From Candidatus Baldrarchaeota archaeon (lineage in GTDB: Archaea > Asgardarchaeota > Baldrarchaeia > Baldrarchaeales > DXJG01): 32,000 bases of DNA. Below the pieces are notes generated by a model. That model saw nothing but the letters and a program-made list of their open reading frames with translations. It did no database searches and was not told the DNA's origin. Of the stretch, positions 24,768 through 27,252 are shown piece by piece. Where the stretch lies: the NCBI GenBank assembly GCA_019056805.1, contig DXJG01000001.1:150001-182000 (forward strand), written 5' to 3'. Numbering within the stretch: position 1 is the first letter of the stretch; each line of letters begins with the position of its first letter. Position numbers and translations under genes: made by a program.

Positions 24768-24876
24768 TGGTGGGCCCGCCGGGATTTGAACCCGGGACTT
24801 CCGCCGTGTGAGGGCGGCGTCATAGCCGGGTTACCCAACGGAAGCTTATTTTCTTCCATTTCTAGACCACGGGCCC
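24768..24876 (-). tRNA. tRNA-Val(CAC) with a 31-nt D-loop intron at position 15/16 (24831..24861); CCA encoded
   Basis: Acceptor stem GGGCCCG/CGGGCCC, anticodon arm CCGCC-CTCACAC-GGCGG, T loop TTCAAAT. Removing 31 nt gives a 78-nt cloverleaf with D loop AGCCCGGCTA. Confidence 0.9.
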
Positions 24877-26413: not shown

Positions 26414-26564
26414 TGGCGCCGGGGGTGGGATTTGAACCCACGCGGCACAACGGCCACGGGCTATCCACCCCTAGGATAGCAGGCTTGAGCCCGCGAAGGA
26501 AACTATAGCGGACCGCTCCCTACCAGGTTCCCCGGAGATCTATTATCCTCTAGGATACCCCGGC
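26414..26564 (-). tRNA. tRNA-Ser(GCT) with three introns: 15/16 (26528..26549), 29/30 (26485..26512) and 37/38 (26463..26476); CCA encoded
   Basis: Acceptor stem GCCGGGG/CCCCGGC, discriminator G, long variable arm. Removing 22+28+14 nt gives an 87-nt tRNA with anticodon arm CGGGC-CTGCTAA-GCCCG. Each intron has BHB geometry. Confidence 0.88.
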
Positions 26565-26780
26565 ATTCTTTAATTAGATAAATGTGCGTCTTCCTTATTT
26601 ATTATTTTCTAAGTTATTAATAGTGATTAATCAAAGAGCATGTTACTATACATAGTGGGTTTTTTAATTTTTGGAACAATAAGTCAAGTAACGGTTTAAT
26701 AGAGATTTTGATAAATAGATCATAAATCAAGTAATATTCTTTAAATTTCAATAATATAGATAATTTTGAAAAGAATTAAA

Positions 26781-27130
26781 GCGGCCGCGGCCCCCTTGGG
26801 TGGATACCTTTCCCGATCGCGGTGTTTCAGCCCCCAGTCTCTACTCCGCACCCCCGTGAGCGCCGAACGTCCGGGGTTAGGTTGCTCCTTCGGGTGGACA
26901 GTAACACTCTCCATCTCCCGGGCCTGGCCTGGTTCCCCCGGTAAGGGTCGTAGTACTCCCGCCTAAGCGGGAGACCCGACCGCCGCCGACCCCACGGGAC
27001 GGAGTTTCATCGCTGTGAGGCTAAATCCTGCGATCGGGGTTAGGTATCGCCCCTTGGGTTACTGGCCCCGCCATAAACCGGGTTTGCGGTTACAGGAAAC
27101 CGGTAACTTCCCGGCCCTACCCGCGGCCGC
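26781..27130 (-). ncRNA. ffs: Signal recognition particle 7S RNA containing a 26-nt BHB intron
   Basis: 10-bp terminal helix GCGGCCGCGG/CCGCGGCCGC; Alu domain with UGUAA motif and complementary loops ACCGG/CCGGU; long helix 5; helix 6; helix-8 signature CCAGG...AGCAA; T-rich tract downstream. Confidence 0.93.
26889..26914 (-). other. Predicted BHB intron at the SRP RNA helix-8 tetraloop
   Basis: Central helix CGGG/CCCG, bulges AG^A and AA^G, intron stem UGGA/UCCA. Excision gives CAGG-CCC-GGGA-GGG-AGCAA. Confidence 0.85.
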
Positions 27131-27252
27131 ATAAAATAGTATGTTTTAATAGTCTAATTAGCTTTTCGTTCTAAAGTGTGATAAAATAAAAATTTATTTA
27201 GATATATGTGATTGGTATGGTGTTATTTGCGGTTATTTTGGAGGTGCTATGA

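Follow-up and report, generated by a model that had tools for sequence, protein, structure and literature searches.

Introns delimited by a bulge-helix-bulge (BHB) motif are a textbook feature of archaeal tRNA genes and are also found in rRNA and in a few mRNAs. The BHB introns and processing sites of archaeal rRNA and of the cbf5 mRNA bring the tRNA splicing machinery to bear on substrates that are not tRNAs, while within the pre-tRNAs themselves non-canonical BHB introns, of the relaxed or HBh' type, were reportedly described by Marck and Grosjean in 2003. [quoted passage not shown] 2015, eLife, PMC4731332), and this is the closest described system to the one considered here.

In T. tenax, the permuted SRP RNA has its two ends at the helix-8 tip, and the BHB motif formed between its leader and trailer is cut in vitro by recombinant heterotetrameric (alpha-beta)2 EndA (PMC4731332). 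The leader of this substrate ends in ...CCCGAA↓G and the trailer starts with AG↓A (Supplementary file 1B of PMC4731332; here and below, the arrow marks a cut or a junction). RNA-seq junction reads all show one ligation site at which the loop is restored, so that the RNA is ligated in vivo, with RtcB proposed as the ligase; an unligated S-domain that is open at the helix-8 tip, a construct that starts GGAGCA... and ends ...CCGGGAG (Supplementary file 1B), binds SRP19 and SRP54 poorly (PMC4731332). As the ancestor of the permuted gene, the same authors proposed a variant with a simple BHB intron (PMC4731332).

Here, we describe an SRP RNA gene from a Baldrarchaeota archaeon, found in a window that comprises the whole 32,000-nucleotide stretch of contig analysed, in which an otherwise collinear gene is very probably interrupted by a spliced archaeal BHB intron at positions 26889-26914 of the minus strand. 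A first-pass annotation of the window, made from its letters, had proposed this intron and stated that no linear archaeal SRP RNA with an internal intron was known. As far as the searched literature goes the statement stands, with no published report of a collinear SRP RNA gene with an intron in a full-text library that covers few subscription journals and no mention of SRP RNA in the 2026 Asgard intron census (bioRxiv 10.64898/2026.10.13.758758). The uniqueness that it implied does not hold, given the same kind of insert in other Asgard archaea and in Bathyarchaeia and the precedent of Thermoproteus.

The SRP RNA gene and its 26-nucleotide insert

The archaeal SRP RNA model of Rfam (RF01857) matches the minus strand at 26784-27127 with a score of 168.5 bits against a gathering score of 96.5 (E 1e-39), and the alignment runs through model positions 1-317, all in their normal order and with helix 1 intact. 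At the tip of helix 8, 28 nucleotides stand in place of two loop positions of the model, which leaves 26 surplus nucleotides, all of them in one insert; the alignment contains no second large insert. The sequence and coordinates given for this insert by the first-pass annotation are exact on the minus strand, on which all features described here lie. Read from the sequence, helix 1 is lengthened by three complementary bases at each end (GCGGCCGCGG / CCGCGGCCGC), giving a precursor of 350 nucleotides at 26781-27130. Exon 1 (26915-27130), which follows the model as far as the helix-8 loop, ends in ...CAGGCCCGGGAG, an end that recurs in 16 interrupted and 26 uninterrupted relatives, and exon 2 (26781-26888), aligned from the 3' side of helix 8 onwards, starts with GGAGCAACC.

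A putative TATA-like box (TAATTAGA, 27153-27160) lies about 23-30 nucleotides before helix 1 begins and is itself preceded by a purine-rich stretch, and a T-rich stretch directly after helix 1 (26768-26780) is a likely archaeal terminator, both being readings of the sequence itself. The genome is a metagenome-assembled draft of 1.92 Mb in 18 contigs, estimated as 91% complete, and within it RF01857 gives this one match and detects no further SRP RNA gene.

The predicted 26-nucleotide intron (26889-26914) is defined by its standing as the single insert relative to the Rfam model, by its BHB fold, by its profile score and by covariation. Its central helix is formed between an exonic 5' strand, CGGG (26917-26920), which later provides the closing C and the GGG of the GGGA loop, and an intronic 3' strand, CCCG (26891-26894), the two being paired in both the minimum free energy (MFE) and the centroid structure. 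The helix is flanked by a 5' bulge, A-G↓A (26914-26916), unpaired in the fold, with a predicted cut between 26915 and 26914, and by a 3' bulge, A-A↓G (26888-26890), with a predicted cut between 26889 and 26888; here the AA is unpaired in the fold, and the third base, G26888, can in the energy model either bulge out or form a pair with C26921. We infer these cut positions from the BHB motif and from the product that they yield. Beyond the 5' bulge, the inner helix h' pairs UGGA (26910-26913) with UCCA (26895-26898), the latter stacking directly on the 3' strand of the central helix, and the remaining apical part (26899-26909) is unconstrained, forms a small AGU/ACU hairpin and varies between congeners. 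Central helix, bulge and inner stem together make up the MFE and centroid structure at 37 C and persist at 60 and 80 C (RNAfold), and the fold z-score of the single sequence, -1.54, is unremarkable and uninformative when taken alone. On the exon side, helix h has one or two standard pairs (C:G, or CC:GG with a 2-nucleotide AA bulge), followed by the non-canonical CAGG/AGCA loop, and the motif is therefore a relaxed one (HBh') and not a canonical hBHBh', in agreement with the weak exon-side helix noted in the first-pass annotation.

Removal of 26914-26889, that is, cutting after the second base of each bulge, gives the sequence CAGG-CCC-GGGA-GGG-AGCA, which RNAfold folds as a 3-bp CCC/GGG stem closed by GGGA. 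The helix-8 stem, its GNRA-type tetraloop and the CAGG/AGCA loop are all absent in the gene as written and present after in-silico excision, and the mature RNA would have them only through splicing. The expectation of the first-pass annotation that excision would restore the domain-IV consensus is borne out by comparison, since the predicted product, AGGCCCGGGAGGGAGCA, is identical to the sequence found in uninterrupted relatives, namely G004, which is of the same order, G008 and 24 other Asgard genomes. A profile HMM built from 15 uninterrupted Asgard SRP RNAs, which serves as a sequence-profile proxy for a covariance-model test, scores the gene as written at 140.2 bits and the gene excised at the BHB sites at 156.8 bits, the highest value of all registers tried; ten excisions in shifted registers reach 135.1-155.9 bits and five distant control excisions 106-125 bits.

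The tetraloop of helix 8 is mainly a contact for helix 6 and SRP19 and, in bacteria, also for the receptor complex, while the M domain of SRP54 binds the adjacent internal loops. When the first-pass annotation spoke of an SRP54-binding tetraloop, its wording was therefore loose.

The same point in related genomes

Related genomes, whose comparison the first-pass annotation had proposed, contain inserts at the same site in congeners as well as in other lineages. An RF01857 search of 40 relatives found inserts of 26 and 24 nucleotides at the identical point in the two congeners that have an SRP match. A wider scan, for the two exon ends lying 8-38 nucleotides apart in one genome per prokaryotic species, returned 14 SRP loci from metagenome-assembled genomes of four Asgard lineages (labelled Baldrarchaeota, Jordarchaeum/Jordarchaeales, Freyarchaeota and Promethearchaeota H2M) and from three of Bathyarchaeia, one of the Baldrarchaeota loci being identical to that of the same-genus genome G001, by which the window is assigned to that Asgard lineage; a match in Akkermansia was set aside as chance. 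Together with metagenome contigs, the scan loci provide 16 distinct inserts of 18-32 nucleotides, all at the same point. Their distribution is patchy: in a sample of 400 Asgard genomes, the exact exon motif is uninterrupted in 36 and interrupted in 10. A looser pattern, AGGCCCGG-N(3-33)-GGAGCA, run over the 400 Asgard genomes, gave many matches outside SRP RNA, and nine of the ten suspicious ones were rejected by Rfam.

Across the 16 inserts, the elements of the predicted endonuclease substrate are retained. The central helix forms 62 of 64 possible pairs (C:G and G:Y), compared with 27.4+-3.7 after shuffling and 31-41 in slid registers, and the first three pairs of the inner stem are formed in 47 of 48 cases (shuffled, 18.2+-3.4; slid registers, 16-23). 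In an anchored alignment, 97.6% of the cells are paired, against 81.5+-2.2 in shuffles (0/500) and 36-60% in slid registers, and the covariation score is 0.471 against 0.169+-0.026 in shuffles (0/500), figures to be read with the sequences counted as about six lineages and not as 16 independent samples. Double-sided changes occur across lineages in all three aligned inner-stem pairs. The central helix varies on one side only, because exon function fixes its 5' strand: CCCG is replaced by CUCG, CUUG or CCUG in other lineages, with G:U pairs kept. The 5' bulge is AG↓A in 15 of the 16 inserts and AG↓G in the other, and the 3' bulge is AA↓G, AU↓G or AC↓G. Geometry with two bulges is likewise kept in 15 of 16, the least regular insert being that of L026 (G039, Freyarchaeota chromosome CP147778), in which an A.C mismatch replaces the first inner pair and seven pairs come after it. 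The helix, bulge and inner stem proposed in the first-pass annotation are the MFE and centroid structure of this one gene, and across the set the pairs form more often than chance would give.

The inner stem h', 4 bp long in the Baldrarchaeota gene and 3-10 bp elsewhere, undergoes compensatory changes to the point that its sequences are unrelated between lineages (UGGA/UCCA, GCCC/GGGC, GCGUU/GACGC, a 10-bp stem, AGGAGUU/AACUCCU, CGGG/CCCG and CAAUU/GAUUG). Within the genus, where the exons have diverged by 6-9%, the 15 BHB-forming bases of the intron have undergone 0-1 changes and the 11 bases of the apical loop 7-8. With the BHB part kept and the apical loop free to change, selection acts on the endonuclease substrate and not on the tip, which is as expected for an intron and the opposite of what a functional extension would predict.

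Metagenomic data from JGI add contigs with genus-specific flanks, in which the insert is present in all six; a search with gaps of 0-30 between those flanks revealed no intron-less (gap 0) copies. At the RNA level, the only metatranscriptome found with related sequence, X20, which contains a small share of the sequence words of the gene, has contigs that match 26926/26928-27085 at about 91% identity and end 12-14 nucleotides before the 5' splice site, and none of these contigs covers the intron or the junction. A loose end at 26888 (...GCCCGGAAG↓G...) was considered as a spliced form and rejected; it belongs to the uninterrupted SRP gene of another abundant organism, a gene that also occurs in DNA runs. 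Elsewhere in the genome, blastn-short found only chance matches of 10-16 nucleotides to the intron, where true copies would have suggested transposition from a tRNA gene.

Inserts are also found at other points of Asgard SRP RNAs. In the loop of helix 3, in the Alu domain and within the first 60 nucleotides of the SRP RNA, inserts of 30-32 nucleotides are present in two families (L015, L016 and L024 of f13; L017, L018 and L020 of f12), with 31-32 nucleotides where the Rfam model has one or two. Folded by hand, they form BHB motifs with CUAG/CUAG and GG↓A...AA↓C, or with GGCU/GGCU and AG↓A...AA↓G; between genomes, the inner stems change in a covarying manner, and removal of the insert gives back GGGGGG-CUAGGG-CUCCCC. 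In L029 (G027), the 5' strand of helix 8 carries 31 additional nucleotides, at about 200-235 of the SRP RNA and between the CAG and the G of CAGG. The central helix of this insert is GGCC/GGCU, its ends read AG↓U and AA↓G, 9/10 bp of its inner stem are formed, and its excision restores AACCAGGCCAGGCCCGGAAGGGAGCAACC; it is a predicted second intron site in helix 8. An extra hairpin of 14-20 nucleotides (e.g. GAGAGG-UUCU-CCUCUC) at the junction of helices 3 and 4 in L012, L013, L014, L023 and L026 comes after CCUGA, where other SRP RNAs have a UGUAA turn. No BHB motif was seen in this hairpin, which could belong to the structure of the RNA as a genuine addition or represent an insert of some other kind.

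Splicing machinery and alternative readings

The genome encodes the proteins that splicing of such a gene would need. Two EndA paralogues, of 184 and 178 amino acids, are present. The longer, EndA alpha, has as its best PDB match the catalytic subunit from Aeropyrum pernix (3p1z_B, E 1.4e-44), with the Tyr/His/Lys motif context and an N-terminal CSL/L1 loop region that aligns, including a Lys opposite K44, and the shorter has Val at the position of the catalytic His when aligned to M. jannaschii EndA (1a79). By sequence, the pair fits the (alpha-beta)2 type of enzyme with an L1/CSL loop of broad specificity, and (alpha-beta)2 EndA with an L1 loop is the type described for Asgard archaea and linked to the cleavage of relaxed motifs (Kaneta et al., PMC5829648). 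RtcB is encoded as well (608 bits), as are SRP19 and SRP54.

With these components, a splicing pathway can be proposed. In the precursor, the C-GGG at the end of exon 1 would pair with the CCCG near the 3' end of the intron, forming a 4-bp helix flanked by the AG↓A and AA↓G bulges and by the UGGA/UCCA stem of the intron. A two-subunit EndA, composed of the catalytic alpha subunit and its non-catalytic paralogue, would then cut after G26915 and after A26889, and RtcB would join the exons and circularise the 26-mer. The product would be an RNA of 324 nucleotides with the canonical helix-8 tip CAGG-CCC-GGGA-GGG-AGCA, which would be needed for the contact between helix 6, helix 8 and SRP19 and for assembly of the SRP. 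We infer that cleavage and ligation take place in the Baldrarchaeota archaeon itself.

Other RNA genes in the vicinity and in the genome also appear to be interrupted. The tRNA-Val(CAC) gene at 24768-24876 of the minus strand has a 31-nucleotide non-canonical intron after G15, in the D loop (insert 24831-24861), its ends being AG↓A and AA↓C and its inner stem 8 bp long, the SRP RNA insert likewise having ends AG↓A...AA↓. As written, this tRNA gene is called by ARAGORN and Rfam with a wrong 5' half and a mismatched acceptor stem, and after excision ARAGORN returns a perfect 78-nucleotide cloverleaf with an encoded CCA. Just downstream of the SRP RNA gene, a tRNA-Ser-like gene (26414-26564, minus strand) far exceeds tRNA length and looks to be interrupted at several points. 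In the 91%-complete genome, ARAGORN finds only 11 tRNA genes, a number that rises to 18 if introns in the anticodon loop are permitted. Several of these calls look spurious, and non-canonical introns probably conceal most of the tRNA genes; the low count is in line with the 2026 intron census, which describes Asgard tRNA genes as heavily interrupted (bioRxiv 10.64898/2026.10.13.758758).

A mature RNA that retains the 26 nucleotides, with helix 8 extended in a lineage-specific way and an SRP that works with an elongated tip, would be in keeping with the expansion segments that are common in Asgard rRNAs and with those other extra hairpins of Asgard SRP RNAs that are unlike BHB introns, but we regard this as very improbable. 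An extension of this sort would have its apical part as the least conserved stretch of the gene (the 7-8 changes in 11 bases within the genus) and would vary in length from 18 to 32 nucleotides, while the part that is conserved has exactly the geometry of an endonuclease substrate. In the modelled folds, moreover, the unspliced RNA has the tetraloop's GGG tied up in the central helix, and none of the 16 inserts offers a GNRA loop in its place, as the first-pass annotation had anticipated for this gene. The T. tenax S-domain with its open helix-8 tip, poor in binding SRP19 and SRP54 (PMC4731332), also argues against a particle that dispenses with the closed tip.

That finding bears equally on the idea that the precursor is cut and its exons are left unligated, as a two-piece SRP RNA whose parts helices 5 and 8 would keep in contact. 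Ligation is a step distinct from cleavage, and fragmented functional RNAs do exist, yet this outcome is very unlikely, given that RtcB is encoded, that T. tenax ligates the same junction and has an unligated form that binds its proteins poorly, and that the tip would be held after excision by nothing but the 3-bp CCC/GGG stem. The draft and metagenomic nature of the assembly (18 contigs, 91% complete) could in principle make the insert an assembly artefact, or the gene a decaying pseudogene; we give this almost no credence, as the interrupted gene occurs in three species of the genus, in six independent JGI contigs and in several DNA runs, its exons are under structural constraint and score well above the Rfam threshold, and no second SRP RNA gene was found in the genome. 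The intron reading, for its part, is supported by the comparative data, by the splicing machinery predicted from the genome and, by analogy, by the identical motif that is processed in T. tenax.

Relation to known introns and to the permuted Thermoproteus gene

An SRP RNA gene interrupted by a BHB intron probably makes the protein-targeting machinery partly dependent on the tRNA splicing enzymes; if the reading is true, it is co-translational protein targeting in these archaea that depends on them. For Asgard archaea, whose load of introns is unusually heavy, the intron would add a new class of substrate. There is also a practical consequence, in that covariance-model annotation does find such genes, with lower scores and a wrong helix-8 tip, and databases mis-state the mature sequence.

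What is known in this system is the type of intron and the enzymes, and what is new is the architecture of the host gene together with a direct link to the Thermoproteus permutation. Like the relaxed BHB introns of pre-tRNAs, the SRP RNA intron has a 4-bp central helix and 3-nucleotide bulges cut, as predicted, after their second base, and it shares with them an intron-internal helix, a short length and a need for an EndA with the L1/CSL loop; unlike them, it resides in SRP RNA. The same difference in host RNA separates it from the BHB sites of archaeal rRNA and cbf5 mRNA.

The closest likeness is to T. tenax, in which the junction, GGGAG↓GGAGCA, and the BHB core, with CGGG/CCCG, AG↓A and AA↓G, are the same base for base. 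The enzymes also match, an (alpha-beta)2 EndA together with RtcB as the proposed ligase. This identity suggests that the exact motif found in the Baldrarchaeota gene can be cut and ligated, and so lends it indirect experimental support. The two genes differ in architecture. Neither termini at the helix-8 tip nor a BHB motif made by leader and trailer, the marks of a permuted gene, are found in the Baldrarchaeota gene, which is collinear and has its BHB halves joined by the 26-nucleotide intron; its expected products are a linear RNA and a small intron circle and not a circular SRP RNA. The hosts differ too, an Asgard archaeon as opposed to the Thermoproteales.

Asgard archaea, Bathyarchaeia and Thermoproteus share one junction and one BHB core (CGGG/CCCG, AG↓A, AA↓G). 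Either the intron arose before these lineages diverged, or this position is a hot spot, with the exon itself supplying half of the splice motif; if the ancestral or the hot-spot reading is true, SRP biogenesis would be obligatorily dependent on the tRNA splicing machinery in several lineages, some of them related to the ancestor of eukaryotes. Taken with the BHB-like inserts at two other sites of SRP RNA in other Asgard families, SRP RNA would then be a regular host of introns and not a single exception. That a helix-8-tip intron of this kind was the collinear state which gave rise to the permuted SRP RNA gene of Thermoproteus is a tentative proposal, one that we think could be right but would not favour. 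The Baldrarchaeota gene is a simple-BHB-intron variant of the kind postulated for that permutation: a collinear SRP RNA intron, at the same nucleotide and with the same splice motif, corresponds to the intermediate that the authors of the Thermoproteus study postulated and did not have in hand.
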